Positions 19,170 to 35,183 of a stretch of 64,000 nucleotides of DNA are shown here, piece by piece (position 1 is the stretch's first letter; every line of letters starts with the position of its first letter). Both the position numbers and the translations under genes were made by a program. Origin of the DNA: Candidatus Poriferisocius sp. (GTDB lineage: Bacteria; Actinomycetota; Acidimicrobiia; Acidimicrobiales; Bin134); the NCBI RefSeq assembly GCF_965208475.1, contig NZ_OZ242338.1, positions 1,555,177 through 1,619,176 on the forward strand, read 5' to 3'. The notes under the pieces were generated by a model, which was given only the letters and a program-made list of their open reading frames with translations, did not search any database and was not told the DNA's origin.

Positions 19170-20465
19170 TCAGTTCAACAGCAGCTGCTTGGAACTCTCA
19201 GGCCGCCAGGTCGTGACTCCCACTTCGGGGAAGGTGTCCGTAAGGGCATCGGGGCTGGATTGCGATCTTGCATGGGATGGCCCCGAGCGTGCCTGCCCAG
19301 GGGGGAAGTCGGCGTAGGGCGCTGGCGGTGGTCGCAGTTCGTAGGTGCCGATTCGGTTTCGTTGTACCGTCCAGCCGTCGTCGTGGATGTTGTGGTGGCA
19401 GCTTCTACAGACGAGCACCAGGTTGTCGATGTCGGTGCGGCCGCCTGTCAGCCATTCTTCGATGTGATGGGCCTCGCACCATACCGCTGATCGCCCGCAG
19501 CCGATGCAGTGCTTGTCGCGGATGATGAGCGCAGCCCGCTGAGCCTCGGTAGCCAAGCGGTGTTTGCGCCCTACCCACAGTTCCTGGTTCTTGGTGTTGA
19601 ACACAGAAGGCACGATGTCGGCGTTGCAGGCCAGCCGCAGAGCCTCAGACACAGGCAAAGGCGTGCCGTCGCACAGGCGGGCATCAGCCAGCTTCTGGTT
19701 CAAAGCGTCCCACTCGGCAGTCAAGATCAAGGTGGCACCCTGCGGTCTGCGGTCTTTGGTGTCAGCACAGACCAGATTCTCCAAGGCGTCGGCCATCCGC
19801 TGGTCGAACGCCGTCTGGTCGCCATCTTTGCTGCTGTTGGCCAGACGGCGCACCTCATCGGCCAGCGCCGCCTCCATACGATTCCCCGCAACCGGGTCGA
19901 ACCGCCCGTTCAAAACGAACATGCCGTCGTCAGCAGACTTGAAGAAACTAAACGAACGCCGCTCCCGCTGCTTGGCCATCAACGACTTGCCGTCATCGCC
20001 CGACCGCTCATGCTGATGGTCGCGCAACGTTCGGGAGAAAGTGCCGAAATCCTCGCGCCGGGCCGCCTCCACCAACACGGACTCGTCAACCGGCCCCTGC
20101 GAAGCAGCCCTGGCGATTTGGGTGGCGTGGGCCGCGGGAATCTCCCCGGCGCCCAGAGCGTCGAGAGTCTCGGGAACCCCAGAAAGCTGAGAAGCCGCCT
20201 CCACCTCGCGGCGGGCCTGCTGCTTGGAAGCCTGCAACTCCTCCAACACCACCCGACGGGCCAAACCCTCGCCACCCCGGCAGGAATACTCAGCCAGCGC
20301 AGCCGCCTTCATCGCCGCCAGCCGGGCCTCGGCCTTCTTGATCAACCCCAACCGCGCCCGCAACTCCGACAACGACAGCCCAGCCACATCAACCGCCTCC
20401 GGCCAAACCAGCCCCGACGGCCCGCAACCAACCTGTTTCCCCTGTTCACAGGACCTAAACTCCAT
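19170..20465 (-). CDS. DUF222-HNH endonuclease (REP13E12-like)
   Basis: QRMADAL, RLACNA, RDKHCIGC, CEAHH..W..GG.TDIDNLVLVC..CH..IH; start placed at ATG 20465, 7 nt after TATACT. Confidence 0.85.
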   Translation of the reverse strand: MEFRSCEQGKQVGCGPSGLVWPEAVDVAGLSLSELRARLGLIKKAEARLAAMKAAALAEYSCRGGEGLARRVVLEELQASKQQARREVEAASQLSGVPETLDALGAGEIPAAHATQIARAASQGPVDESVLVEAARREDFGTFSRTLRDHQHERSGDDGKSLMAKQRERRSFSFFKSADDGMFVLNGRFDPVAGNRMEAALADEVRRLANSSKDGDQTAFDQRMADALENLVCADTKDRRPQGATLILTAEWDALNQKLADARLCDGTPLPVSEALRLACNADIVPSVFNTKNQELWVGRKHRLATEAQRAALIIRDKHCIGCGRSAVWCEAHHIEEWLTGGRTDIDNLVLVCRSCHHNIHDDGWTVQRNRIGTYELRPPPAPYADFPPGQARSGPSHARSQSSPDALTDTFPEVGVTTWRPESSKQLLLN

Positions 20466-20684
20466 ACATGCAAGTATACCCACCCCAGTGACAACAACCC
20501 CTTGGATAAGCGCATACAGGCGAATACATCCTGGAATTCATTGACTTCGACTTGAACATAAACAACAAGGCCCACATTACGGGGCGACAGTATGAGACAC
20601 ACGATATGTGCAATGCCCCGCTAACGCGTTGTATCTGCCCTCAGTCCATGCGGCGCGTACGCCTTCGAGCCCTGCCGAGTCCCC

Positions 20685-20927
20685 CTAATCGCTCGATTGG
20701 AAGGGAGGCGGAATGAGGTCTTCATACATGGCTGGGTCGGGGGGCACGACCGCCACTTTGCCATTGTGCCGCGTCACGACCCCTGTGCCGGTTTGATAAG
20801 CCAAGAGGTGCGCGTCCTTGGCGGCCAGCCTCAGCGACCGCAAGATGGATTCGGTCAATTCCTCGCCGCGCAAGACAGGAGGATGGTCGGCAAAGACCTC
20901 TTGGTCGTTATCGCTCGGATCAGTCAC
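20685..20927 (-). CDS. Small hypothetical protein, probable partner of the zeta-like ATPase
   Basis: 80 aa, overlaps the ATPase 3' end; LRLAA..A...A..TGT.VV..NGKV pattern recalled from such partner genes. Confidence 0.55.
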   Translation of the reverse strand: MTDPSDNDQEVFADHPPVLRGEELTESILRSLRLAAKDAHLLAYQTGTGVVTRHNGKVAVVPPDPAMYEDLIPPPFQSSD

Positions 20928-21446
20928 GGTTCATGCCTTGCTCGACGAGCAGCGGCACCGGCCCAGAGTTGTCCAACACCCTCCACTCGTCAACCCTACC
21001 AATGTAGTGCTCATACAAGTTCCGCAGTCCAGCATCGAAGCGCCTGCGAACCACATCTTCAGGCACCGGATGGCCCCCCTGTCTCACCCTCTCAGCTACC
21101 CGCCGCACAGCATCCTCGGGGCTGCCAAGACTCAGATACACCAGAACAACCCAATAACCGTCGCATCGCCATCGATCGATGCGCCTCAAGTAGCTGCGGC
21201 CCGCCAGGGTGGTCTCGAAAGCAAAGCTGCGCCCCTGGCCAGCCAGACTGTTGATCTCGGCCAGCATCAGCCGGCGGCTGCGGCTTCCACACCTGTTCCG
21301 CGACTAAGCGGCGACAACCCGGCGGCAATGAGATCGGCATTGACGAAGTGCAGACCAGGCGCCTCGCTTCGCAGATGCCTCATCGCAAACGTGGTCTTTC
21401 CCGCACCATTAGGGCCAGCAATCACGTAGATCTGCTTGTCGGCCAT
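20920..21446 (-). pseudogene. Zeta-toxin-like P-loop ATPase (COG4185-like), frameshifted
   Basis: ATG 21446 reads [33 protein letters not shown] and stops at 21269-21267; second frame continues RLMLAEI..SFAFETTL..RVAERVRQGGH.VPE. Confidence 0.8.
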
Positions 21447-21764
21447 GCAAGAACACGATAGGCGGCTCGAACTCTGCGCCTCGGATGCGAAATGGATTCA
21501 CAAATCCCGATTGGGGAGCCTCGAACTTCAGTCGTGGCCTGGACACAGCTCCGCCTTGTAGTGCTTGCCTCGACGAAAAGTGGGTGACTTGCGAAGCGTG
21601 ACTCACCGAATTGGGGCGATGTGGCTCCGGCGGCAAATCGGCAGGACATGAGGGCGACGGGGCGTATGCTCAGCACGAGCGCAGAACATCCCCCATGTGT
21701 GTCGGGTGCCTTGCGCTGGTCAACGGGCGACAGGAGTAGTACGCCTCAAGGAGGCAGCGGCTAG

Positions 21765-23210
21765 TTGTACGGAGAGTGGTGGATCGAGGCGCGCAAGCGT
21801 CCGCCGAAAAATTACAAGCCTCCAATACACACCGTCGCGGGAGATCTCCTGGCTGATGGAATGTCTGATTGGGCTTTGGAGACGATCGGAAGTCTGACTG
21901 CTGAGTCAATTTGGCAACATACGGGAAGTCCCGTTGTCATGACCGAAGACGACCTTGTCACCATCAGGGGCACGGACAGCGCTGGGAAGTCATACAGCTT
22001 GCTTGGGTGCTACGACACCAACTCGATTATGCAGTCCTCAAGCATCCGCGATGGGGTGCAGCGCTGGGCGGTGAGCACCATTGTCGAAGGGGATGGCACA
22101 TGGGTAGGCCCCGACTCGGAGGTCGAGGAAATCTCCATCTCGTTCCGCGACCTCGCTGCGTGGGCGACAGACGTCAGGAATAGTCCATTCACCTTCGATG
22201 CTGACGCGCATGTCATGTCGTTCCATGGGACATGGAACGACGAAGAGAGCCTGGTGCAGGACTGCTCGGTCAGGCTTCGTCATGGCTTTAGTTGGTCGTC
22301 ATCCGACAGCCGCTTCGTTGCAAACGCGTCCGCATCAATCACGATCTCCGACACGCTGAAGCTCCAGCAGGTAGCCGAAAAGTGGATTCGTCCCATCAAT
22401 GACCTGATGTCGCTGCTCGCCATGCGCCCGAGCTTTCCAATAAGCATCCGCGCACATCTCTTGGAGAGGTTCGGGCGAGAGCGCCCCACTGAAATCGACA
22501 TTCGGATTCCACAGGCATTGGACCATGTAGACGAGGACGACGCGGACGAGGGCATCGTCCCCCGACAGTTGGAGATGCTTGTCACCCGTGTCGGGTTACA
22601 AGAGGCGGGAGTGACTTTCGAGGCCTTGTTAGGAGGCTGGTTTACTGTCCAGGGCAATGACAAGCTCCGCGTGGCTTTCGAGCGTCTCGCGGACTCCCAA
22701 GCGAAGACATCAGGTTTTTCGTTCGATGACTCTCTCTTGCATGCCTGCAACGGCCTCGAGAGCCTTCACGCTGCTTGCTTCGATGGAAGCGTTTCTGAAG
22801 ACGCCGCCACGAAGGAGATACTGACTCGACTTCAAGATACCGTGCCCGCCAGCCACAAGGACCTCCTCTCAAACCGGCTGGCGACTACCCGGAACAAGAG
22901 CTTTATTGAAAAGACAGACGAGATCGCCCAAAGCTGTGGGGACACGGGACGAGCCATCTTGGAGGCCTACCCCAACCTGGTCCCAGACATCAACAAATTC
23001 CGCACGAGAGCAGCGCATGCCAACACGAAGCCGAAAGATCCAACCGGTCAGATTGACGTGCTCATCGGCAGTCAGTGGCTACTGCGCCATTCCCTGCTCC
23101 AAGCACTCGGAATCGCAACGGCGGAATGCGACGCCATCATCCTCCCAAACTTCACCTTCAAGAATCAACTGCGACGCCTCGAGGCCCGCCACGCATCAGG
23201 CACCGCCTAA
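21765..23210 (+). CDS. ApeA-like protein: N-terminal domain plus C-terminal HEPN RNase
   Basis: GEWW..VAGDL N-terminus, GLESLH, and Rx4H motif RTRAAH; AAGGAGG upstream of TTG start. Confidence 0.7.
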   Translation: MYGEWWIEARKRPPKNYKPPIHTVAGDLLADGMSDWALETIGSLTAESIWQHTGSPVVMTEDDLVTIRGTDSAGKSYSLLGCYDTNSIMQSSSIRDGVQRWAVSTIVEGDGTWVGPDSEVEEISISFRDLAAWATDVRNSPFTFDADAHVMSFHGTWNDEESLVQDCSVRLRHGFSWSSSDSRFVANASASITISDTLKLQQVAEKWIRPINDLMSLLAMRPSFPISIRAHLLERFGRERPTEIDIRIPQALDHVDEDDADEGIVPRQLEMLVTRVGLQEAGVTFEALLGGWFTVQGNDKLRVAFERLADSQAKTSGFSFDDSLLHACNGLESLHAACFDGSVSEDAATKEILTRLQDTVPASHKDLLSNRLATTRNKSFIEKTDEIAQSCGDTGRAILEAYPNLVPDINKFRTRAAHANTKPKDPTGQIDVLIGSQWLLRHSLLQALGIATAECDAIILPNFTFKNQLRRLEARHASGTA

Positions 23211-23524
23211 CCTGGTGGGGATTGCTGTCGAGGTGGTGTGGTGAGTTGCAACGGATACCGAGGGACGTATACCCGATAGTGGCGTGCCGTAATCGAAGAT
23301 CAATCGCCTGCTCTCAGCGCCTGCCTCTTAGGGGCCGAGCGGATAGGCGCTGACCTGCGGAAACATCTGAACCCCGGACTGCGACTCCAGTTCCTTGACC
23401 TGCAGTTTTGCTGGGGCACATCGCGGTCCGAACGGAATCCACCGAGATCCGTGTCGCCTATCCGCGAAGCCTCTTAATTCCATTGCGTTGGCGGCGGCCG
23501 TCGAGATCAGAGAGAGGTCGACGC

Positions 23525-23563
23525 GCCCGGCACCACTACGCGCCAAGCGTAGTGGTGCCGGGC
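23525..23563. terminator. Perfect 17-bp stem hairpin, probable terminator between convergent genes
   Basis: GCCCGGCACCACTACGC-GCCAA-GCGTAGTGGTGCCGGGC, just past the stop codon of the minus-strand ORF ending at 23581. Confidence 0.6.
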
Positions 23564-23580
23564 AAACGCGCATGTGCAGT

Positions 23581-24270
23581 TCAGTCTGAATCCTCCGCGT
23601 CATCAACCTCCGGCCCGTCTTCCGGGACTGATGACGTTCTCAGGAACTGGATGCGGGACGCGCTGATGATTGCTATGTCGTCGTACCATTCGTAGCGCTC
23701 GCCTCGTTCGTCCGAGTCCTCAAGTGGCCAGTACCAAGGATCGAGGAGGCACAGATCTCGTTCCTCTGTTTCCTCGTAGTCCTCGTTGAAGCTGAGCAGG
23801 ATACCGGCGACCACCGATCCGTCAGTGAGGTGGCAGTACACAACTGTGTCGCCTTCTGGGTGCTCCAACCAGTCGCTCCACGAGGAGCGCTGTGTCCGTC
23901 CATGTCTGTCCAGCCAGCCGGCTACAGCCCTTCCTCCGACAAGGGCCAATCCGCTGGATATCCCCAGAACCACTGCACACCACCAGAACACGTAGGACAG
24001 GTGGTTGCTCAGGTACTGGCCGGGATCGTCCGCGATCCGCCCTATGTCAGGAGTGTGCGAGGGACTGGCTGCTCTTATGACGGCGAATACGCAGAGTCCG
24101 GCAAATGTCGCTAAGAAACCCGGGACGATCAGCAGCGCCGTTTCTCTGAATCCCAGAGGCCTCTTGGCGGCAAGGCCTGACTGCCTGCCGGATTCCCTGC
24201 CAATCCTGTAGCTGAAGCCTGGGACTAGGACCAGTCCCAGGGCCAGCACTCCTGTGAATGCGCCGGTCAC
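23581..24270 (-). CDS. Membrane protein, DUF6338-like
   Basis: LVLVPGF N-terminus, 3 TM helices, then SSWS..V...L.DG..V.G soluble Sm-like tail. Confidence 0.6.
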   Translation of the reverse strand: MTGAFTGVLALGLVLVPGFSYRIGRESGRQSGLAAKRPLGFRETALLIVPGFLATFAGLCVFAVIRAASPSHTPDIGRIADDPGQYLSNHLSYVFWWCAVVLGISSGLALVGGRAVAGWLDRHGRTQRSSWSDWLEHPEGDTVVYCHLTDGSVVAGILLSFNEDYEETEERDLCLLDPWYWPLEDSDERGERYEWYDDIAIISASRIQFLRTSSVPEDGPEVDDAEDSD

Positions 24271-25060
24271 CTACTGCTGAGTGCCCCTCTGAGCACTGCC
24301 TTGGCTCTGTGATCTGGCGTTGTGGGCCTCAGCCCGTCTTTGGCGCGATTCGTCGCTGGTCCTGCTTCTGTCCCTCACATGCCGCTGCCCGAAAACCTCG
24401 CGCTTTTCGCCCATGTCAACTCCAGTCCGTGAGCCGCACCATTGACATTAGATTAGCGGTGCTTTCCTGCGAATCAATACCCACGGACGGCTCCAGGGCA
24501 GATAATCCAGAGCCGGACAGGCTATTTTGGCTGCTCAGACAGTGTTTTCTAGTGCTCCTGCTGCTTGGATAGCCCTTCGGTAAGCTCTTCCGGCATCGCG
24601 TCGAAGTCGAACGCCTCTTCCGGGTTGAAGAACTCGTCATCTCCGAGGGCGGAAAAGATGGCTTCGGTACATCGGGGACGACGCCGATGACGGGCTGGGG
24701 GTGCAGCAGCAGCTTGCTCTCGAATTCATGAAGTCGCAGTGACCACAGACGCGTAGCTTCTCGAGGATGCCTGAAGAGACCTTTGGCGTGGATCGCCGCC
24801 TTGCCTTCATCTTCGAGACCGAAACAGCGGTGACCTTCGTAGGGGAGGGCGTCCAGTCCATCGCTGAATGGGACGCCACAAAAGACCGAAGAATCGTCGG
24901 CTTGCACTTGGCGTGACCCCTCTGGAGGAGTCTGAGCTCTTCTGTGGCATCCCCTCAAACTGTCACCGCAGGCCCATACACTCGCAGCGAGATAGCTAGC
25001 CACCTGCAACTAGATCACTTGCGGGCGATAACAAGATTCTGGCGATGTGCAAGGAGTCTG

Positions 25061-26452
25061 ATGTCCAAGCAGCGAAAGGAGGAGGGCATGGAGGAAGCAA
25101 CAGAAGGGGTGAGCAAGACGGTGAAGATTGCTGTTCCCGAGTTTGTCGCAGAAGTGGCCAGCCCCTTTGCCAATGATCTGTTGGATCGTGGGCCGCGGGT
25201 GAGGCTGCTTTGCGATTTCGGCAGATCGGTCTCCGACCATGCGGTAATCGCCGTCGATGGGGGGTGGGGTACTGGCAAAACTGCGTTTCTGATGATGTGC
25301 AAGGCCTACCTAGAGCAGCAGGAAGTTAGGGTCGCCGAGTTCAACGCCTGGACCGAGAGCTACACGGCTGACCCGGTGTTCAATCTCGCCTCGGCACTGG
25401 CTGAAGTAGTGGAAGAGGACCGGCGTGCCAAACTGCTTGGAGCGGCGAAAGCCATAGTCGTGGCTGCCGGGAAGAATCTGCCACTCAAGGTCGGCGAAGT
25501 TGTGACCGAGGCGGCAGAGGCAATCGCCCAGGACCAAGCATTCCCAAACGGCCTGCCTGAGTACCGCAATTGCGTCCGACGATTCAAAAAGGCGCTGGAA
25601 CAAGAAGCAGAAAAAGCAGACGGCCCGCTGGTAGTGCTGGTGGACGAACTGGACCGCTGTTTGCCCCAGCAGGTCGTCGAATATCTGGGGGCCATTCACA
25701 ACCTGCTGGCAGTGCCAGGGGTGGTTGTAGTGCTGGCAATCAACCTAGAAGAGACGGCGAAAGGGCTGGAAGCGGTCTATGGAAGCGCATACGGCTCTGA
25801 GCGGTACTTGCAGCGCTTCTTCGACCTGCGGATGAGTCTCCCCGGCGCAACGGGCAGCGACGACTTATCCGGCTTGGTCAACCACCTGCGGGAGCACCTG
25901 GAGATCGAAGTAGAAGCAGACACCAGCCGCGGCTACATCGACGGATTGCTGACGACCACTGCGCTGGCAACCGGCGGCGCTCTGAGGGACTTGCAACGGG
26001 TCGCTCAGGCTCTCCGGTGGACGATGGCTGTCGGCCTTGAATCGGCGGCAAGCTGGCGCATCAACAGCCCGGAGCGGTACGCCGAGTGTGTTCGAGCCGC
26101 GTTGGCGCTGTTGATCCTGCGACATCTCGACCCGGAGGGCTACCGGCTCTTCACTGAGGCAAAGGCGAATCCCCATTCGGCCATGTTGCGATTGCACAGC
26201 CATCTCTTGGGAGCCGAACCGGAATCGGCTCACGCAGCGTTCGCGATGACCGCGTATTTTGACTTGCTCTCAGCGGAAACTGGTGGGAATCAGGTCACCG
26301 AGGAACAGTTCCAAGAGATAGCAGACCTCTACTCCTTCCAAAACCACCGGGAGACCTATTCCCGCTATAACAGCTTCAGGCAACAGATCATGCGGCACCT
26401 CAACGGCCAGGTTCCACAGGTGGTACTGGCAGCAGTAGAAATGACAACCTGA
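25061..26452 (+). CDS. KAP family P-loop NTPase
   Basis: AVDGGWGTGKT, FNAW, VLVDELDRC, YLQRFFD; AAGGAG before ATG 25061. Confidence 0.88.
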   Translation: MSKQRKEEGMEEATEGVSKTVKIAVPEFVAEVASPFANDLLDRGPRVRLLCDFGRSVSDHAVIAVDGGWGTGKTAFLMMCKAYLEQQEVRVAEFNAWTESYTADPVFNLASALAEVVEEDRRAKLLGAAKAIVVAAGKNLPLKVGEVVTEAAEAIAQDQAFPNGLPEYRNCVRRFKKALEQEAEKADGPLVVLVDELDRCLPQQVVEYLGAIHNLLAVPGVVVVLAINLEETAKGLEAVYGSAYGSERYLQRFFDLRMSLPGATGSDDLSGLVNHLREHLEIEVEADTSRGYIDGLLTTTALATGGALRDLQRVAQALRWTMAVGLESAASWRINSPERYAECVRAALALLILRHLDPEGYRLFTEAKANPHSAMLRLHSHLLGAEPESAHAAFAMTAYFDLLSAETGGNQVTEEQFQEIADLYSFQNHRETYSRYNSFRQQIMRHLNGQVPQVVLAAVEMTT

Positions 26453-26562
26453 TGAACCGGGAGCATTGACCATGACCGGACCCTGTTGTTTTTTCCAGGT
26501 GAGGATTCGGCAGGCTCTTTCGATGGATGTAGTTGAATGCATTTCAGGTGGGGGGAACTCCA

Positions 26563-26757
26563 TCAGTGGTTGCAGCGGGTCGGCCACGATGTCCGGCGTG
26601 TTGCAGCAACCAACCGATGGAGGCCGCTCACGACAGGCCCGCGCTTTTCATACACGGCCATGACGAGGACGCGTGCCCAAGGAGCCTGCTCATTGGCCCA
26701 CTCAACCAAGATTCCCTGTGGCGAGCGCGCGCTCTTTCCCGCTTGAACCACTCCCAC
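26563..26757 (-). pseudogene. Possible truncated N-terminal fragment of a large AAA-family protein
   Basis: AAGGAGG RBS before GTG 26757; ILVEWANEQAPWARVL resembles WxxxQPxW N-termini of defence ATPases; ORF only 64 aa. Confidence 0.3.
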
Positions 26758-26946
26758 CGATATGCCTCCTTGGAAACTTGATTCTCCAAGACCTGAAGAT
26801 ACCGGTGTCTTCTCAAGAACGGGGTCTTGGGTTGTGAGAGGGTGACCTCCCGAGGCAAGTCCACGCCGATTCCCGCGACTGAATTGGGCTGCATTGTGAT
26901 CTGAGCTTGCAGGCGCGGCAAGAATGGCACGACAGAGAGGGCAGGC

Positions 26947-28491
26947 GTGGCGACGGATCTTGGTGAGCTTCAGAACAAGTTGTGGGAGGCGGCGGATCAG
27001 CTTCGGGCGAACTCGGGGTTGAAGGCTTCGGAGTATGCGTCGCCGGTGTTGGGGCTGATCTTTCTGCGGTATGCGGATGAACGGTTTGCCCAGGCTGCGG
27101 AGGTGGTGGGGTCGGGGTCTGAGCGGCGGCCGATTGGGCCGGAGGATTACCAGGCTGCTGGGGCGCTGTATCTGCCGGAGGAGTCGCGGTTTGAGGGGCT
27201 GCTCGACCTGCCTGAGGGTGCCGATGTGGGCAGAGCGGTCAACCAGGCGATGGCTGGCATAGAGGCTTGCAACCCGGACCTTCAGGGGGTGCTGCCGAAG
27301 GACTACTCGCGCATCCCAGACGACATCCTAGGAGAGCTGTTGCGGCTGTTGAGCCGTCTGCCGGAGGCGATCGAGGGGGACGGGTTCGGGTTGATCTACG
27401 AGTACTTCTTGGGTCAGTTCGCCTTCTCGGAGGGGCAAAAGGGCGGGGAGTTCTTCACCCCTACCTCGATCGTGCGGCTCATCGTGGAAATCCTCGAGCC
27501 GTTCCACGGCAAGATCTACGACCCCGCGTGCGGCTCTGGCGGGATGTTCATACAGTCGGCCCACTTCGTGGAGCGCCACCGCAGCGACCCCAGCCGGGAG
27601 CTGTCGGTCTATGGCCAGGAGAAGACCGGCGACACCGTCAAGCTCGCCAAGATGAACCTCGCGGCCCACGGTCTGGCCGGCGACATCAAAGAGGGCAACA
27701 CCTACTACGAAGACCTCCACGACGCGGTCGGCGAGTTCGACTTCGTGATGGCCAATCCCCCGTTCAATGTCAACAAGATCGACAAGGCCAAGCTCGAAGA
27801 CGACCCCCGGTTCCCGTTCGGGCTGCCCAAGCCCGACAATGGCAACTACCTGTGGATCCAGACCTTCTACTCCGCGCTCAACCGAAACGGGAGGGCCGGG
27901 TTCGTGATGGCCAACTCGGCATCAGACGCCCGAGGCAGCGAACTCGAGATACGCCGCAAGCTGATCGAGGACCGCAGCGTCGACGTGATCATCGCCGTCG
28001 GCACCAACATGTTCTACACCGTGACCTTGCCCGTGACCCTGTGGTTCCTCGACCGCGGCAAGAAGTACACCGACCAAGCCGACCAAGTGCTCTTCATTGA
28101 CGCAAGAGAGATCTACAACCCAATCGACCGGGCTCACCGAGACTGGACACCCCAGCAGATCGAGTTCCTCGCCAACATCGTCCGACTCTGGCGAGGCGGA
28201 GAGCCGGAGTTCGACGCCGGTAGTAGAGAGATGCTCAGCGACAGGTTCTCCGAAGGCTCTTATTCAGACGTTGCCGGCCTCTGTGCTGTCGCGACGGTAG
28301 AGCAGATTGAGGGACAGGACTGGAGCTTGAACCCGGGCAGGTATGTCGGACTTGCTTCCCACGGTGTCGATGACATCGAATTTTTCGCCACGATGGAACT
28401 CCTTGAAGAGCAGTTCGCGACTTTGACAGCAGAAGCGACGGCGTTGTCGGATTTCGTGCAGACGAAAATTGACAGGGTGCTGCGCCAGTGA
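26947..28491 (+). CDS. hsdM: Type I RM methyltransferase subunit (m6A)
   Basis: LWEAADQLR, GEFFTP, YDPACGSGG, NPPF. Confidence 0.96.
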   Translation: MATDLGELQNKLWEAADQLRANSGLKASEYASPVLGLIFLRYADERFAQAAEVVGSGSERRPIGPEDYQAAGALYLPEESRFEGLLDLPEGADVGRAVNQAMAGIEACNPDLQGVLPKDYSRIPDDILGELLRLLSRLPEAIEGDGFGLIYEYFLGQFAFSEGQKGGEFFTPTSIVRLIVEILEPFHGKIYDPACGSGGMFIQSAHFVERHRSDPSRELSVYGQEKTGDTVKLAKMNLAAHGLAGDIKEGNTYYEDLHDAVGEFDFVMANPPFNVNKIDKAKLEDDPRFPFGLPKPDNGNYLWIQTFYSALNRNGRAGFVMANSASDARGSELEIRRKLIEDRSVDVIIAVGTNMFYTVTLPVTLWFLDRGKKYTDQADQVLFIDAREIYNPIDRAHRDWTPQQIEFLANIVRLWRGGEPEFDAGSREMLSDRFSEGSYSDVAGLCAVATVEQIEGQDWSLNPGRYVGLASHGVDDIEFFATMELLEEQFATLTAEATALSDFVQTKIDRVLRQ

Positions 28492-29759
28492 CGTGGACGA
28501 CCTCTACGTTGGGGGATCTCGCCTGCCAAGCAGGAGGCGAGGTCCGTACCGGCCCGTTCGGCACGCAACTCCACAAGAGCGACTACATCGATGACCCTGC
28601 CGCCACACCGGTCGTAATGCCGAAGGACATGTCAGACGGCAAGATCGATTCGTCTGCGATCGCGCGAGTCGACGCTGAGGTGGTCGAGCGCCTGAGTTCA
28701 CACATGTTGCGCACGGGTGACATTGTGCTCGGCAGGCGAGGAGACATCGGTCGCCGAGCTTGGACCAGTGAAGCAGAGGAAGGCTGGCTTTGTGGCACAG
28801 GATCCATGCGGATTTCCGTCAATGGGTCTGTGAATATCCGCCCTAGGTATCTCTTCTATTTCCTCGGACTCGACCAAACCATCGGGTGGTTGAAGGGCCA
28901 CGCGGTAGGGGCGACGATGTCCAATCTGAGCGCCGGGGTCGTTCAACAGCTGCCGGTGCAGTATCCATCGCTTGCCTTGCAAGATGCCATCGTGGAAGTA
29001 CTGGACTCGCTCAACGACCTGATCGAGAACAATCGGCGGCGGATTGAGGTTTTGGAGGAGATGGCTCGGTTGTTGTATCGGGAGTGGTTTGTGTACTTCC
29101 GGTTTCCGGGGCATGAGGATGTCGGGCTGGTCGACTCCGACCTCGGCCCGATCCCCGAAGGGTGGGAGGTTGGCGAGTTCGCAGACCTCGTCGCCGAAGT
29201 CTCGGAAACAGCTGCTCCAGAAGAAATCGCAGTGAGAACCCCAGTCGTGGGCCTTGAGCATTTCCCGAGGCGATCTACAACACTGCAAGATTGGGAGAGC
29301 GCCTATGACGTAGGAAGCCGTCGAAAATTCTTCGACGAAGGCGACATCTTGTTTGGAAAGATCCGCCCGTACTTTCACAAGGTGGTTGATGCACCTACCT
29401 CTGGTTGCTGTTCGACCGATGCAATCATTTTCAGGCCCATCGAGGAGATCTTCCAAAGCCGGGCGTTGGCAATTGCTTCAAGCGATGAATTTGTTGGAGT
29501 CGCAACTGCAACCTCAAACGGGACGAGGATGCCGAGAGCGAACACCAAGATTCTGATGGGCTACAGAATACCTCACCCGACCCACGGAGTTGAGCAGGCC
29601 TTCAGCGAGGCAGTGAGACCGATGAACTACCTGAGAAAGAACCTTGCGACGCAAAACCGGGTATTGCGCGAGGCTCGCGATCTGCTTTTGCCACGTCTGG
29701 TGTCTGGCGAGCTCGATGTGTCGGAGCTTGATTTGGGGTTGGAGGCTGTGGGGGCGTGA
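28488..29759 (+). CDS. hsdS: Type I RM specificity subunit
   Basis: Two TRDs separated by conserved LIENNRRRIEVLEEMARLLYREWF..FRFPG; C-terminal RDLLLPRLVSGE. Confidence 0.94.
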   Translation: MTWTTSTLGDLACQAGGEVRTGPFGTQLHKSDYIDDPAATPVVMPKDMSDGKIDSSAIARVDAEVVERLSSHMLRTGDIVLGRRGDIGRRAWTSEAEEGWLCGTGSMRISVNGSVNIRPRYLFYFLGLDQTIGWLKGHAVGATMSNLSAGVVQQLPVQYPSLALQDAIVEVLDSLNDLIENNRRRIEVLEEMARLLYREWFVYFRFPGHEDVGLVDSDLGPIPEGWEVGEFADLVAEVSETAAPEEIAVRTPVVGLEHFPRRSTTLQDWESAYDVGSRRKFFDEGDILFGKIRPYFHKVVDAPTSGCCSTDAIIFRPIEEIFQSRALAIASSDEFVGVATATSNGTRMPRANTKILMGYRIPHPTHGVEQAFSEAVRPMNYLRKNLATQNRVLREARDLLLPRLVSGELDVSELDLGLEAVGA

Positions 29760-32700
29760 GTCCGGGGCGGTTGAGTGAGGATTTGCTGGTGGAGCGGCCG
29801 GCGTTGCGGTTGTTGGCGGATTTGGGGTGGGAGGTGGTGGACGGGTTCGACGAGGATTTGGGGCCGGCGGGGACGCTGGGGCGGGATTCCCAGTCGGAGC
29901 CGGTGCTCAGCCATCGGCTCAAGGATGTGCTGCGCTCCTTGAATCTTGGGCTGCCGCAGTCGGCGTTGGATGAGGCCGTCGAGCAACTGGTACGGGATCG
30001 GTCGGCGATGGATCGGGTTCGGGCGAACCGGGAGGTCTATTCCCTCTTGCGGGATGGAGCAAGGGTCGAGATGACCGGCAGCGATGGCGAGCGGCAGATG
30101 GTGGTGGTCCGGTTCATTGACTGGGATCGCGCTGGGGCCAACGACTGGTTGGCGGTGTCGCAGTTTTGGATTGCGGGTGACATGTATCGGCGGCGGGCTG
30201 ATGTGGTGTTGTTCGTGAACGGCATCCCGCTGGTGCTGGTGGAGTTAAAGGTGTCGCACAAGAGCGTCCGCGACGCGTTCGACGGAAATCTGCGGGACTA
30301 CCGGGACACGGTTCCGCATTTGTTCTGGTTCAACGGGTTCGTGATGCTCTCCAATGGCGGCGACACGCTGGTCGGTTCCACGTTTGCGGATTGGGGGCAT
30401 TTCGCCGAGTGGAAGAAGATCGACTCGGAGGGCGAGCAGGGTGTGGTTTCGCTGGAGACCGCTCTGCGGGGGACGTGTCAGCCGCAGCGTCTGTTGGATC
30501 TGGTGGAAAACTTCGTCGCGTTCATGGAGCGGCCGGGCGGTCTGGTGAAGGCATTGGCCAAGAACCACCAGTTTCTAGGAGTGAACAACTCGCTGGAGGC
30601 GTTGCGGGAGGTGGGCCGGCGAGAGGGGCGGCTCGGGGTGTTCTGGCACACGCAGGGGTCGGGCAAGTCGTTGTCGATGCTGTGGTTCACCCAGAAGGTT
30701 CTGCGCCAAGAGCCGGGCAACTGGACGTTCGTGATGGTCACCGACCGCTCAGAGCTCGACGATCAGCTTTATGGGGATTTCGCCGACTGCGGGGTGATCA
30801 CCTCGGGCCAGCAGGTCCACGCCGAGACGTCGGCTCATCTGCGGGAGCTGCTAGGCCAGGATCATCGGTATGTGTTCACGCTGATCCACAAGTTCATCCC
30901 TCCCAAGAGGGGCCAGCAGATGCCGGTGCTGTCGGAACGCGACGACATCGTGGTGATCACCGACGAGGCCCACCGCTCCCAGTACGACACGCTGGCCGCC
31001 AACATGCGCCAGGCGGTGCCCAACGCGTCGTTCATCGGGTTCACCGGCACCCCGCTTATCGTCAGCGAAGAAGAGACCCGACGGGTGTTCGGCGACTACG
31101 TGTCGATCTACAACTTCCGGGACTCAATCGCCGACGGCGCCACTGTTCCGCTGTTCTATGAGAACCGCATCCCCGAGCTCCAGCTGGTGAACGACGACTT
31201 CGACGACGAGCTCGAGCAGCTCCTGGAGGCCGCCGCGCTGGACGATGCCCAGGAGAAGGCGGTGGCCCGCCAGTTCTCCCGGCAGTACCAGCTGGTCACC
31301 CGGCCCCGGCGCCTCGAGGAGATCGCCGCCGATCTGGTCCGCCACTTCGTCAACCGGGGGTACAGGGGCAAGGCCATGTACGTGGCCATCGACAAGGCCA
31401 CCGCGGTGCGGATGCACGGCCTGGTCGAGGCCGAATGGGCCGGCTACCGGGCCGAACTGGAGGCCGAGCTGGCCGACGCGCCCGAGCTGGGGCGCGTCCA
31501 TCTGGAGTCGCTGATCGAGTTCATGGCCACCACCGACATGGCCGTCGTCGTGTCGCAAGCGCAAAACGAGGTGGCCGATATGGCCGAGGCCGGACTCGAC
31601 ATCGCCAAACACCGCAGGCGCATGGTCGAAGAAAACCTCGACGCCAAGTTCAAGGACCCCGACGACCCGTTCCGGCTGGTGTTCGTGTGCGCCATGTGGC
31701 TCACCGGCTTCGACTCGCCATCCACCTCCACGGTGTACCTCGACAAGCCGATGCGCAACCACGCCCTGATGCAGACCATTGCCCGGGCCAACCGGGTGTT
31801 CCCTGACAAAGACAACGGCCTCATCGTCGACTACATCGGCGTGTTCCGAAACCTGGAGAATGCCCTAGCCATCTACGGCGCCGGGCCGGGGATCGACTCC
31901 CCCATCCGGCCCAAAGACGAGCTGGCCGCCGAACTTGCTGCCGCGCTGGCCGAAGTCATCGATTTCTGCAACGACAACGACATCGACATCGCCGCCATGG
32001 AAGCCACCTCGGGTTTCGAGTTCATCGCACTCCAAAAGGCCGCCGTCGAAGCCCTGCTCGTCGACGAGCAAACCCGCCGCCGCTACGTAACGCTGGCCCG
32101 CCAAGTCCGGAAGACCTTCAAAGCCCTTTTGCCCGACCCCGAGGCCATGGCAGTCGCTCACCGGGTGGCGGTGATCCGCACGATCGCCTCCAAGATCGAA
32201 TCGTCCACCGAGGCCCCCGACATATCCGGCGTCATGGACTCGGTGTCGGAACTGCTCGACCGCTCCGTCGCCGCCAACGAGTACATCATCGCCACCGCCG
32301 GCGCCGACCCGCTCATCGACCTGAACCAACTCGACTTAGAACAGCTCATCGGGCGCTTCGAGGGCCGCAAGCGCACCGCCGCCAAAGCCATCGAAAAGAA
32401 CATCGAAGAACGCCTCGATGACGCGGTGCGCAAGAACCCCACCCGCCACGACCTCGCCGAGCGGTTCCGACGCCTCATCGACGAATACAACGCCGGAACC
32501 CACAACCTCGAAGAATTCCTGCGGCGGCTCAAGGCCATCAACGACGAACTCTCCGACGAGGAACAACGCGCCGTACGAGAAGGCATAACCGAAGAAGAAC
32601 TCGCCATCTTCGACCTGCTCACCAAACCCGAACCCGACCTCACCCGCGCCCAAGCCATCGAAGTCAAAGGCGCCGCCAAGAAACTGCTCGACCACATCGC

Positions 32701-32890
32701 CGACAAGCTCGTCCTCGACTGGAAGCGCAAACAACAAACCCGCTCAGCCGTCAAGACCACGGTGAAGGACATCCTCGACGCCGAGCTGCCCGACGTCTAC
32801 GAACGCGAGCTCTTCGACCGCAAAGTCGATGCCGTTTTCGACCACATCTACACCAGCTATCACAACAACGGGGAGTCGGTGTACGGCTGA
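29756..32890 (+). CDS. hsdR: Type I RM restriction subunit
   Basis: ADVVLFVNGIPLVLVELK nuclease motif, HTQGSGKS, DEAH, FTGTP, QTIARANR. Confidence 0.96.
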   Translation: MSPGRLSEDLLVERPALRLLADLGWEVVDGFDEDLGPAGTLGRDSQSEPVLSHRLKDVLRSLNLGLPQSALDEAVEQLVRDRSAMDRVRANREVYSLLRDGARVEMTGSDGERQMVVVRFIDWDRAGANDWLAVSQFWIAGDMYRRRADVVLFVNGIPLVLVELKVSHKSVRDAFDGNLRDYRDTVPHLFWFNGFVMLSNGGDTLVGSTFADWGHFAEWKKIDSEGEQGVVSLETALRGTCQPQRLLDLVENFVAFMERPGGLVKALAKNHQFLGVNNSLEALREVGRREGRLGVFWHTQGSGKSLSMLWFTQKVLRQEPGNWTFVMVTDRSELDDQLYGDFADCGVITSGQQVHAETSAHLRELLGQDHRYVFTLIHKFIPPKRGQQMPVLSERDDIVVITDEAHRSQYDTLAANMRQAVPNASFIGFTGTPLIVSEEETRRVFGDYVSIYNFRDSIADGATVPLFYENRIPELQLVNDDFDDELEQLLEAAALDDAQEKAVARQFSRQYQLVTRPRRLEEIAADLVRHFVNRGYRGKAMYVAIDKATAVRMHGLVEAEWAGYRAELEAELADAPELGRVHLESLIEFMATTDMAVVVSQAQNEVADMAEAGLDIAKHRRRMVEENLDAKFKDPDDPFRLVFVCAMWLTGFDSPSTSTVYLDKPMRNHALMQTIARANRVFPDKDNGLIVDYIGVFRNLENALAIYGAGPGIDSPIRPKDELAAELAAALAEVIDFCNDNDIDIAAMEATSGFEFIALQKAAVEALLVDEQTRRRYVTLARQVRKTFKALLPDPEAMAVAHRVAVIRTIASKIESSTEAPDISGVMDSVSELLDRSVAANEYIIATAGADPLIDLNQLDLEQLIGRFEGRKRTAAKAIEKNIEERLDDAVRKNPTRHDLAERFRRLIDEYNAGTHNLEEFLRRLKAINDELSDEEQRAVREGITEEELAIFDLLTKPEPDLTRAQAIEVKGAAKKLLDHIADKLVLDWKRKQQTRSAVKTTVKDILDAELPDVYERELFDRKVDAVFDHIYTSYHNNGESVYG

Positions 32891-32967
32891 TCGCGATCGG
32901 GCCACGGTCGCCAAGCGGCTGAGCGCTTGGGACCACAACAACGGGGAGTGGGTGTATAGCTGATCGC
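32861..32967 (+). repeat. 34-bp direct repeat of the hsdR 3' end
   Basis: CACAACAACGGGGAGTCGGTGTACGGCTGATCGC (32861-32894) vs CACAACAACGGGGAGTGGGTGTATAGCTGATCGC (32934-32967), 3 mismatches. Confidence 0.85.
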
Positions 32968-33016
32968 CCCCGCAACATGGGTGGGTGCCCGATGCCGCGC
33001 GGTTAGCATCATCGCT

Positions 33017-34327
33017 GTGGCAGCCACGCTGACGAGCTTGCGCCTCCCTGCGTTCAAGAACATGAGACGGACGTCTATTCCGCTTGGGCCCCTCACCCTG
33101 CTCGTAGGGCGCAACGGCAGTGGCAAGTCGAACATCCTTGATGCCCTTGCCGTAATGTCCTCGCTGGCCAGCGGTGCCACGCTGCGAGATGCACTAGACG
33201 GTGGTCGTTCAGGACCCCTGGTGCGCGGCGGATCCGAGGGGTGCGCTCCAATGGGCAATGACTCGTTTGAAGTCGGTTGTTCAGTTGTCATCAACAGAGT
33301 CCCGTATCACTTGGACCTAAAAATCTCGGTACGTCCGTCAGTGCAGATCCTCACCGAGAGGCTATGGACCAAACGCCGCGGCGGTCCTCGCCGCGGTGAG
33401 CCCCAGGATTTGTTGAAGACAGACCCGCCCCAACCAGACTCGGGCGACATCGTGGCACGATGGGACAACAGCAAACAGGGACCGAATCCTCAAATTACCT
33501 TTCGAGCCTCGCAGCTTCTGACCGCACAGGTGGCGACTCGAGTGCCTGTCACTTCACAGGCAGGCCGCCATGTGCGGGACATAGCTGAACAGGTGCTCGA
33601 GGCGCTTTCAAGCGTGTTTATTCTCGATCCGGTTCCACACCAGATGCGTGAATACCACCCCGAGAAGGACGTACGGCTCCGCAGGAATGCAGAAAACCTC
33701 TCGCCAGTGTTAGCAAATCTCCTCAATGATGGTGCGACCCGTTCGGTTCTGCTCGACATGATCCGCTCGCTGTCGGAGGCACAGGTCTCAGAGATGAACG
33801 CGGTGGCTAGCGAACTCGGCGACGTGATGATCACGATCCAGGAGCAGATCGGGCCAACTGACCAACAGACGCCGGCCCGCTTGTTGAGCGACGGCACCCT
33901 GCGATTCCTGGCCATCGCGGCAGCACTCCTCGACCTCTCGCGCCAAAGCAGCGGATCTGAAGAATCAATCATTGGCGGACGAATGCTTGTCGTGGAGGAG
34001 ATCGAGAGCGGTCTGCACCCATCGCAAGCCGCGGTGCTCCTCAACCAACTCAAGGAGTCGGCGAAAAGCGGAGTCCGAACACTAGCTACCACCCATAGCC
34101 CGGCAATCCTCGATGCGCTCGACGGCGCAGACCACTCAAGCGTGGTCGTGTGCAGCCGCCGCCCCGACGGATGGAGCACAGCGACAAGGCTCACCGACTT
34201 TCCCGACTACTTCGAGGTTGTAGGCCGCTCGCCACTCGGCATCGCTGCTGTGCGAGACCAACTTCGTCCTAGTAACGAAAGTGAGCAAAGCAGTCGTTCG
34301 CTAGTGGACGTGTTGGGGCTCCGCTAG
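33017..34327 (+). CDS. ABC-type ATPase (AAA_21/AAA_15-like, non-transporter)
   Basis: GRNGSGKSN, signature LSDGTLRFL, VVEEIESGLHP, TTHSP; start placed at GTG 33017, 7 nt after TAGCAT. Confidence 0.88.
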   Translation: MAATLTSLRLPAFKNMRRTSIPLGPLTLLVGRNGSGKSNILDALAVMSSLASGATLRDALDGGRSGPLVRGGSEGCAPMGNDSFEVGCSVVINRVPYHLDLKISVRPSVQILTERLWTKRRGGPRRGEPQDLLKTDPPQPDSGDIVARWDNSKQGPNPQITFRASQLLTAQVATRVPVTSQAGRHVRDIAEQVLEALSSVFILDPVPHQMREYHPEKDVRLRRNAENLSPVLANLLNDGATRSVLLDMIRSLSEAQVSEMNAVASELGDVMITIQEQIGPTDQQTPARLLSDGTLRFLAIAAALLDLSRQSSGSEESIIGGRMLVVEEIESGLHPSQAAVLLNQLKESAKSGVRTLATTHSPAILDALDGADHSSVVVCSRRPDGWSTATRLTDFPDYFEVVGRSPLGIAAVRDQLRPSNESEQSSRSLVDVLGLR

Positions 34328-34330
34328 GAC

Positions 34331-34798
34331 ATGGCCGTACCGCATGTCGTCTTTGTCGACACGTCCGTCATCCTCCGCCTTATTGGCATGGACGGTATCG
34401 ACCAGGCCACAAACGCCGCCGTCGAGTTCGACGAGAGACGAGACCAAGGTCAGCGGCTGATACTCACAGCGACTGCACTCATCGAAGCGGGCAACCACAT
34501 AGCCCAACGGTCCTCCGGTCGGCGGGCCCTTGCAGAGCAGTTGAGAAAGCTCATTGAGGCCGCGAACACGCCAGACCCTCCGTGGATCCTCCGTGAAACC
34601 GCAATGGACGAGGACTTTGTCAATGACCTGTTGAACGGCGATTCGACAGGATCGGATCTCGTGACTCTTCTCGGAGACGGACGACTAGGCACCGGGGATG
34701 TGGCGATACTGGTCGAGCGGGATCAGTTCAAGACGAAGACGGCCCACGCCAGGGTCGAGGTGTGGACGCTCGATGACGAGTTGTCGGCGCACAGCTAG
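34331..34798 (+). CDS. PIN-domain protein
   Basis: VFVDTSV, LIEAGNH, GTGDVAIL, WTLDDEL give the four acidic PIN positions; 3 nt after ATPase stop. Confidence 0.75.
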   Translation: MAVPHVVFVDTSVILRLIGMDGIDQATNAAVEFDERRDQGQRLILTATALIEAGNHIAQRSSGRRALAEQLRKLIEAANTPDPPWILRETAMDEDFVNDLLNGDSTGSDLVTLLGDGRLGTGDVAILVERDQFKTKTAHARVEVWTLDDELSAHS

Positions 34799-34895
34799 TC
34801 GCGCAACCCGTTCAAGCCGCAGCCCCGATCCACCTGTTCACAGCAACTGGGACTCAACACGAATACTTGGTGTACCGCCCCCGTAACATGGGCGG

Positions 34896-35183
34896 ATGGT
34901 CGATCCGGCTTCTCCTGGGGAACGCTCGGCTGCGCCTCCGAGAGGGGCTCGCTGGTTGGCGTTTGCGGCGATATTGCTCGGGGGGCTGTGCGGCGGGCTG
35001 ATCGGGTTCGCCTATATCGACCTCCAGTGCGACGGCGACTGCGGACTGTGGACTGGGCTCGGCGCTCTGATCGGTGCGGTGGCCGGGGCAGTGGGCTTGG
35101 CCGTGGTGGCGATCCTCACCCTGCGGGCCATGGACGAGTGGCGCCGGTTCGGAGGTCGCCGCCAAGACCGCGATCGCCGCTAA
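34896..35183 (+). CDS. Small two-TM membrane protein
   Basis: Two hydrophobic helices around a CDGDC loop, LRAMDEW tail; TAACAT 6 nt before ATG. Confidence 0.7.
   Translation: MVDPASPGERSAAPPRGARWLAFAAILLGGLCGGLIGFAYIDLQCDGDCGLWTGLGALIGAVAGAVGLAVVAILTLRAMDEWRRFGGRRQDRDRR

Follow-up and report, generated by a model that had tools for sequence, protein, structure and literature searches.

Among the immunity systems of bacteria, the association of an ATP-binding cassette (ABC) ATPase with a separate nuclease is a recurrent theme, to which Septu, PARIS, Gabija and the candidates HEC-01 to HEC-04 belong. In Septu, as in retron I-A (Ec78/Eco7/Ec83), the ABC ATPase PtuA is accompanied by a small nuclease, PtuB, of the HNH type, and in PARIS the ABC ATPase AriA is the sensor and the TOPRIM protein AriB (DUF4435) the separate nuclease effector. 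Menshen (NsnABC) possesses three genes, one of which encodes the ABC ATPase NsnB; the PIN-like domains of NsnC are reported to be devoid of catalytic residues and to carry a separate, C-terminal nuclease (PMC12065111). HEC-03 (Hma-embedded candidate 3) combines an ABC ATPase with a VapC-like PIN protein, and the corresponding preprint reports that it lowered plaquing in E. coli, that both genes were needed and that the system was toxic on induction (bioRxiv 10.1101/2024.01.29.577857). In the same preprint, PDC-M07 figures as a phage defence candidate without experimental test (Payne et al., bioRxiv 10.1101/2024.01.29.577857). The present study concerns a two-gene cassette, encoding an ABC ATPase (gene A) and a small PIN-fold protein (gene B), in a stretch of 64,000 nt from Candidatus Poriferisocius sp. 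(contig NZ_OZ242338.1, positions 1,555,177 to 1,619,176); this whole stretch is called the window, and all coordinates are counted within it.

Assignment of the cassette to PDC-M07

By its sequence, the cassette is a member of PDC-M07, catalogued in PADLOC-DB v2 as 'phage defence candidate', multi-gene number 07. Both window proteins match the two PDC-M07 models over their full length, the genes are intact and adjacent on one strand with an intergenic gap of 3 nt, they lie beside a type I restriction-modification (RM) operon, and no structural difference from PDC-M07 was found. The genes concerned are the following.

26947..32890, + strand: complete type I RM operon (hsdM 26947-28491, hsdS 28488-29759, hsdR 29756-32890)
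33017..34327, + strand: gene A, ABC ATPase of 436 aa, PDC-M07A member (PADLOC PDLC04389; Pfam AAA_21, AAA_15)
34331..34798, + strand: gene B, PIN-fold protein of 155 aa, PDC-M07B member and putative nuclease effector (PADLOC PDLC04394; AlphaFold2 fold)

This assignment overtakes one statement of an earlier note on the same DNA, which knew of no named system with exactly this pairing, without excluding one, and had itself counted a match to a named system against its proposal. Its description of the locus stands: the pair directly follows hsdR, the open reading frames (ORFs) and the PADLOC matches reveal a full type I RM operon in front of it (E-values of 3.7e-209 for MTase_I, 1.4e-76 for Specificity_I and 9.1e-171 for REase_I), the second protein begins after 3 nt and counts 155 aa, and no antitoxin-sized gene precedes the PIN gene, there being no other ORF between A and B. 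The interpretation of the note was also right in kind, the cassette consisting of an ABC ATPase and of a PIN-fold, nuclease-type partner with conserved acidic residues. The pair is a believable immunity module, but not one of a new kind, and it opens no new category.

Among ABC ATPases, gene A belongs to the SMC/Rad50/OLD/PtuA type. The motifs of an intact non-transporter ABC ATPase that had been read from the DNA (Walker A, LSDG signature, EEIE Walker B and H-loop) are all present in its translation as GRNGSGKS, LSDG, VVEEIE and TTHSP. Pfam assigns it to AAA_21 (E 1.1e-27) as well as to AAA_15, and the PDC-M07A model (PDLC04389) matches it with an E-value of 1e-161 and 536.9 bits, residues 15-446 corresponding to positions 4-441 of the 443 of the model. 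Among the best 25 of its 135 PADLOC matches, to which the comparison was confined, are also HEC-01A (7.4e-38), AriA (2.1e-29), NsnB (1.5e-18) and PtuA (1.1e-12), as well as AbiLi, mad3, Old and GajA. The nearest sequences of solved structure are the PtuA proteins of Septu and retron I-A (E 4.9e-12), followed by the heads of OLD, SMC, Rad50 and RecF. The AlphaFold2 (AF2) model (pLDDT 87.9), which contains a variable, β-rich insert at about residues 83-163, gives the same ranking: the closest folds are the PtuA chains of the retron Eco7/Ec78/Ec83 and Septu complexes, with E-values around 1e-12 (best 7.7e-13) and template modelling (TM) scores of 0.4-0.6, and the SMC/Rad50 heads come next. In NCBIfam, neither A nor B is named above cut-off.

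The PDC-M07B model (PDLC04394) matches residues 5-154 of gene B on positions 3-148 of 154 with an E-value of 4.5e-34, and all six PADLOC matches of B at E <= 1 are to PDC-M07B models. The AF2 model, built from 36 sequences, is of high confidence (pLDDT 90.3, pTM 0.85), and its top matches among the PDB entries searched with Foldseek are VapC/PIN chains with target-normalised TM scores of 0.57-0.74, including 5x3t_B (E 2.8e-4), PAE0151 and VapC20 (5wzf_B, 0.74). The small protein is confidently predicted to adopt a PIN/VapC fold, a Rossmann-like α/β/α fold, as the earlier note had supposed. By sequence alone, the B profile found only designed repeat proteins in the PDB, at chance level. With respect to VapC, gene B carries an extra segment within residues 79-123, an insertion of about 25 residues whose own glycine/threonine-rich motif is conserved (G103, T106, G120 and G122, just before D123); this segment could serve to contact the ATPase or the substrate.

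The conservation of the two proteins was followed in 39 pairs, those of 38 other species-level genomes and that of the window. In gene A, G31, N33, S35, G36, K37, S38, Q171, S291, D292, G293, E327, E328 and H360 are invariant in 39/39; they form the Walker A motif, the Q-loop, the SDG of the signature, the Walker B motif and the H-loop. In gene B the invariant residues are D10, S12, E52, G54, N55, G122, D123 and E129 (39/39), and position 148 is D or E in 38/39, which completes a D-E-D-D/E acidic set with PIN-like spacing and upholds the four PIN acidic residues seen at first sight (D10, E52, D123 and position 148). Both predicted active sites are shown by this alignment to be under strong constraint.

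The analogy with PARIS and Septu, as first drawn, survives in its general form: the architecture of ABC ATPase plus nuclease is there and PtuA is the nearest solved relative of A, but the AriB TOPRIM and the PtuB HNH are absent, B being a PIN protein. Septu and retron I-A likewise join an ABC ATPase to a small nuclease, and their PtuA is the closest to A by sequence and by fold among solved structures; the PtuA model of PADLOC is nevertheless weak on A (1.1e-12), the NCBIfam PtuA model gives 39.5 bits for a cut-off of 500, and the TM scores reach only about 0.4-0.6. With PARIS, the cassette shares the ATPase sensor and the separate nuclease effector, and the AriA model matches the C-terminal half of A; that match is however partial (residues 243-378), and B matches no AriB model. 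Menshen also combines an ABC ATPase (NsnB model against A, E 1.5e-18) with a PIN-like domain in the partner; in gene B, by contrast, the catalytic residues are retained and a second domain is absent. The two designs differ, because the PIN-like domains of NsnC are reported to lack catalytic residues and to carry a second nuclease. Gene B resembles the toxin of VapBC by its VapC PIN fold and its D-E-D-D/E acidic set, but an ATPase of about 436 aa occupies the position of VapB, no VapB-like gene is found, B carries the insertion of about 25 residues and its Pfam PIN match stays below threshold.

HEC-03 has the same layout: an ABC ATPase, then a PIN gene, in a two-gene unit without VapB, and PDC-M07 too is found embedded in Hma. 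The difference lies in the sequences, between which no link was seen. The matches of the B relatives are all to PDC-M07B, and no HEC-03 model was matched by B (E <= 1) or by three of its relatives, one of them Hma-embedded (E <= 1e-5), nor was one present among the best 25 of the 135 PADLOC matches of A; the HEC-03 content of the library searched is unconfirmed.

Linkage and genomic context of the homologues

A scan limited to one genome per species yielded 56 loci, distributed over Acidimicrobiia metagenome-assembled genomes (MAGs), Streptomyces, Nocardioides, Tessaracoccus, Oscillochloris and a MAG of Phycisphaeraceae. Gene A lies directly upstream of gene B on the same strand in 53/56, which is 53/53 of the testable loci, since in the three others (L047, L073 and L074) B is less than 100 nt from the end of the contig; the co-occurrence on which the first interpretation depended is thus complete in the testable loci. 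The intergenic distance of the intact pairs ranges from -24 to +20 nt, and the B clade never stands apart from the ATPase in the loci examined. At E <= 1e-3, gene B has 105 relatives, almost all of them metagenome proteins, those bearing a name coming from Acidimicrobiia/Acidimicrobiaceae MAGs and Candidatus Poriferisodalis. A profile search in 1.84 billion representatives retrieved 975 clusters (at 50% identity) with E <= 1e-3, 664 of them with E <= 1e-10, and the best 150 all have lengths of 94-221 aa.

Two kinds of defence neighbourhood recur. In nine of the 56 loci (L044, L046, L049, L052, L053, L054, L056, L058 and L063), the pair lies between HmaA/HmaB and HmaC, the identity of these neighbours having been confirmed on cluster representatives, and in one more (L062) an HmaA-like gene follows the pair. 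In eight of the 56 loci, the pair adjoins type I RM genes, as it does in the window: in L035-L041 its immediate upstream neighbour is a divergent hsdM, and in L070 a co-oriented hsdR lies upstream. Without the window, this makes 18/56 loci in Hma or beside type I RM, a number to be taken as a lower bound, because the tally annotated only representatives of neighbour clusters (formed by blastp) present in at least three loci and defence genes unique to one locus could escape it. At least 15 loci, by contrast, lie among metabolic genes. In Streptomyces/Actinacidiphila and in Aldehydirespirator-type genomes, these metabolic neighbours encode a major facilitator superfamily (MFS) transporter, a CN-hydrolase, a 2-oxoacid dehydrogenase, a P450, a sulfatase and a luciferase-like monooxygenase, and nine Streptomyces/Actinacidiphila loci share a common conserved housekeeping neighbourhood.

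Mobile elements contain few relatives of the pair. Six distant matches were found among 72,556 plasmids, and no sequence match in 50,697 phage records. The window copy abuts hsdR, and one of the distant plasmid pairs, on pAQU1 of Photobacterium damselae (L080, record 59827-66177), lies between hsdS and hsdR; its B shows 27.5% identity, and a gene for a SprT-family metalloprotease follows. Another distant pair stands beside a RelE/ParE module on a mobilizable Acinetobacter plasmid of 9 kb.

Two observations concern the neighbours themselves. The HmaC ATPase (DUF499) of L056 (10644-14459, + strand), which represents a cluster, c3, also found in L044, L046, L049, L053, L054 and L058, carries an N-terminal Swt1-like HEPN domain (E 7.3e-30). 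A protein with Schlafen AlbA_2 and HATPase_c_4 domains is encoded beside the pair in four loci (L027, L029, L035 and L036); its cluster, c12 (e.g. L036:2551-4512, - strand), gives weak PADLOC matches to pAgo-associated models.

A proposed mechanism and its alternatives

The model we propose, and which we consider rather probable, is that the cassette is an intact PDC-M07 member acting as an abortive-infection module in which a PIN nuclease is gated by an ATPase. By analogy with PtuAB and AriAB, A would be the sensor and gatekeeper and B the effector, a VapC-like PIN nuclease. Gene product A, probably an ATP-dependent oligomer like PtuA, would hold B inactive in a complex. A phage-derived cue, perceived through the variable β-rich insert, would shift the nucleotide or oligomeric state of A, thereby freeing or activating B, which would cut RNA (tRNA, rRNA or mRNA, as VapC-type PINs do). 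The cleavage of RNA by B would then halt the growth of the infected cell.

A predicted complex of A and B lends this model weak support. The interface score (ipSAE) is 0.34 (runs 0.41, 0.34 and 0.34) versus 0.01 for the best control, with a partner pLDDT of at least 82 and a contact agreement of at least 92%. Among the pairs used for calibration, 58 of 80 solved complexes and 2 of 110 mismatched pairs attained the mark, but scores of 0.60 or less belonged to only 7 of the 80 solved complexes and to both mismatches; these counts hold only roughly here, because custom alignments were used for A and B.

Several observations weigh against the model. That complex prediction passed only weakly. The Pfam PIN family (PF01850) stays below its gathering score on B, with 16.7 bits instead of 23.6 (E 0.012), so that the PIN assignment rests on the fold; 23 of 39 B relatives match this family at E <= 0.1, the best at 5.3e-5. 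No fused A-B protein or longer form of B was found, which the tool itself rates as weak evidence. Copies are visibly decayed in 7/53 loci (L029, L031, L042, L050, L054, L070 and L078), and PDC-M07B is rare in the class of the host, being present in 3/401 genomes, the one studied here included; two genomes of the same genus (G355 and G397) contain no PDC-M07B. Within the roughly 7 kb annotated around each pair, 38/56 loci have no Hma or type I RM neighbour, and at least 15 loci, in Streptomyces and Aldehydirespirator-type genomes, are set amid metabolic genes. Finally, no published experiment on PDC-M07 was found in the literature searched by name, a search that lay outside the supplementary tables of Payne et al., and a cold-seep study validated PDC-M05, HEC-01 and others, but not PDC-M07.

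Could the same pair be an addiction module? Gene B has the VapC fold and the toxin position of a two-gene operon, the Pfam label of AAA_21 reads 'putative AbiEii toxin, Type IV TA system', the distant pair of the small Acinetobacter plasmid has RelE/ParE as its neighbour, many loci lie outside defence contexts, and HEC-03 is reported to have been toxic when induced. All this would suit a toxin-antitoxin (TA)-like function, the PIN protein being the toxin and the ATPase a non-canonical antitoxin, with the stabilisation of an island or plasmid as the outcome. We regard it as unlikely: a simple neutralising antitoxin would not be expected to keep its ATPase motifs invariant, the pair is met repeatedly, and in the same orientation, within Hma and type I RM, and the phage records gave no match and the plasmids only six distant ones. 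The TA and abortive-infection roles are, besides, compatible with each other.

The recurrence in methylation-based restriction raises another alternative, in which the pair would be an accessory of the adjacent type I RM or Hma and would work only together with it, for example as a PARIS-like backup set off by anti-restriction proteins such as Ocr or ArdA; the earlier note had inferred a guard of type I RM of this kind. In its favour are the 18/56 loci, to which the window adds one, where the pair is in or abuts Hma or type I RM, the insertion between hsdS and hsdR on pAQU1, and the C-terminal ATPase segment (residues 243-378) that A has in common with AriA models (E 2.1e-29). The 38/56 loci without such a neighbour, among which the nine Streptomyces/Actinacidiphila loci share their housekeeping neighbourhood, nevertheless make it quite improbable; the effector is moreover a PIN protein instead of the AriB TOPRIM, and the hsdM gene of L035-L041 is divergent, not co-oriented. 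In particular, an obligatory dependence of the pair on RM is unlikely, because only 18/56 loci are in or beside Hma or RM and at least 15 lie amid metabolic genes. A role in DNA repair or recombination, with a RecF/SMC/Rad50-like ATPase and a PIN/FEN-like DNA nuclease, could invoke the matches of the A N-terminus to SMC, Rad50 and RecF heads and the fact that PIN-like folds include 5' nucleases, but it is highly improbable in view of the patchy and rare distribution (3/401 genomes of the class), the low-GC island and the embedding in defence systems, the best folds, which are VapC toxins for B and PtuA for A, and the frequent decay of the copies.

The abortive-infection model can be extended to the whole family. 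We advance only tentatively, as a possibility, that PDC-M07 is a working abortive-infection system in which the ABC ATPase replaces VapB and releases a PIN RNase on a phage cue, and that it would represent a PIN-armed counterpart of PARIS and Septu, with an origin independent of HEC-03. The cue might be an anti-restriction factor, because of the repeated embedding of the pair in type I RM and Hma. PDC-M07 is already catalogued, and the architecture of ABC ATPase plus PIN is validated in its sister system HEC-03. If the cassette works as proposed, the theme of ABC ATPase plus nuclease would gain a second lineage of PIN effectors, without detectable sequence similarity to that of HEC-03, and would reach the Acidimicrobiia, where the named relatives place it among sponge-associated MAGs. 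The 53/53 linkage, the invariant catalytic residues and the recurrence in Hma and type I RM constitute a sound starting point for a first test of PDC-M07.

Flanking repeats, start of gene A and the defence island

The immediate surroundings of the cassette contain the following features.

32934..32967, + strand: remnant of the hsdR end, 34 nt, with stop codon, 91% identical to 32861-32894
32965..32987, + strand: left 23-nt direct repeat, interpreted as a displaced and decaying copy of the downstream gene's promoter and start
33004..33009, + strand: TAGCAT, -10-like box, 7 nt before the GTG of gene A, putative promoter
34876..34898, + strand: right 23-nt direct repeat, comprising TAACAT (34884-34889) and the ATG (34896) of the next gene
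34896..35183, + strand: next chromosomal gene, putative glycine-rich membrane protein of 95 aa, at which the synteny with the same genus starts

As an open frame, ORF A extends over 32981..34327 (448 aa) from a GTG at 32981, but its likely start is the GTG at 33017, because the match to the PADLOC model sets in only at residue 15 of this longer frame and because an ATG, GTG or TTG is aligned there in 20 relatives. Gene A begins at most 126 nt downstream of the hsdR stop at 32890. In most of these 20 relatives (L025-L048 and L070, about 30 nt of upstream region), a TANNNT hexamer precedes the aligned start by 6-7 nt. The same layout of TANNNT and start is found before the neighbouring small gene (34884-34895 in the window, compared with 33004-33016 for gene A), and it would fit a leaderless transcription in these actinobacteria. 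A scan for sigma-70 consensus promoters found nothing, and one for terminators gave a single terminator-like match, located inside gene A and within the expectation from shuffled sequences. Since A starts at GTG 33017, the left 23-mer does not contain the start of A and lies upstream of its box. It was considered as the promoter of the cassette itself and rejected, as 19 loci of other context show no conserved counterpart upstream of A; the TANNNT box that A possesses closer to its start also speaks against this role.

The 23-bp direct repeats that had been described as bracketing the pair are confirmed, with 20/23 identical positions between 32965-32987 and 34876-34898. A search of the window at up to three mismatches returns these two copies only, versus 0 in 100 shuffles, and a chance repeat was rejected. 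Beyond the 23-mer the similarity goes on (24/30 and 27/34) and takes in the opening codons of the gene downstream. The right copy is, as proposed earlier, a TAACAT box followed after 6 nt by the ATG at 34896; the cassette-free genome G397, of the same genus, keeps this layout at the homologous spot (TATCAT, 6 nt, ATG), and the right 23-mer is for this reason taken as the native promoter and start of the gene at 34896. A homologous promoter and start are also found in L023, L074 and L070. L070 (Ca. Poriferisocius aerobius), which preserves the order hsdR, A, decayed B, small gene, has the left 23-mer in diverged form, and in L023 and L074 B is followed by that small gene. The 95-aa protein itself reaches no Pfam family above threshold and has no PADLOC match.

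The copy of the hsdR end at 32934-32967, which escaped the first reading, is found 73 nt beyond the genuine end of hsdR, between the stop codon and the left 23-mer, into which it runs directly; it exists in the window only, L070 having a single hsdR end, and it probably marks a past exchange of hsdR alleles. Together, the repeats and the remnant look like a scar of insertion or recombination. The cassette would have been inserted at the junction of hsdR and the small gene, with duplication of about 23-34 nt of target, before the separation of the lineages of the window and of L070, and a later exchange of the hsdR allele would have left the 34-nt remnant.

The flanking repeats and the remnant are consistent with the proposed arrival as a discrete module, but no empty site with a single 23-mer was found in the two same-genus genomes searched, G355 and G397, because their hsdR orthologues (83% and 70% identity, respectively) are not beside the small gene; both genomes carry this gene, unlinked to hsdR. 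The orthologue of G397 (L082, C1:2524107-2527238, - strand) shows a single in-frame TAA close to its end, the frame runs well past the position of the window hsdR stop (open frame of 1262 aa) and its C-terminal context differs. A tandem accretion at an att site received no support: the window contains just two copies of the 17-nt core and lacks tRNA genes, and the cassette encodes no recombinase. An Rfam search of 26-37 kb returned nothing.

The right 23-mer coincides with the right edge of a low-GC island, where the GC content passes from about 0.60 to about 0.70: values of about 0.58-0.61 prevail between about 20.5 and 34.9 kb, and values of 0.67-0.70 further to the right. Synteny with G397 and G355 is confined to the right side, from the small gene at 34896 onward, and the left flank of the island lies about 430 kb away in G397. 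The other genes at or within the island are these.

19170-20483, - strand: DUF222-HNH gene
21765-23210: ApeA-like HEPN protein, weak PDC-S58 match
23581-24270, - strand: DUF6338 protein
24944-26452: KAP NTPase, PDC-S20 (E 1.1e-51)

With the type I RM operon and PDC-M07 added to these genes, the region 20500-34900 looks like a defence island made of several systems. Roughly a dozen DNA matches to the DUF222-HNH gene, of 63-81% identity, are scattered around the genome of G397, which suggests a multi-copy and possibly mobile HNH family.

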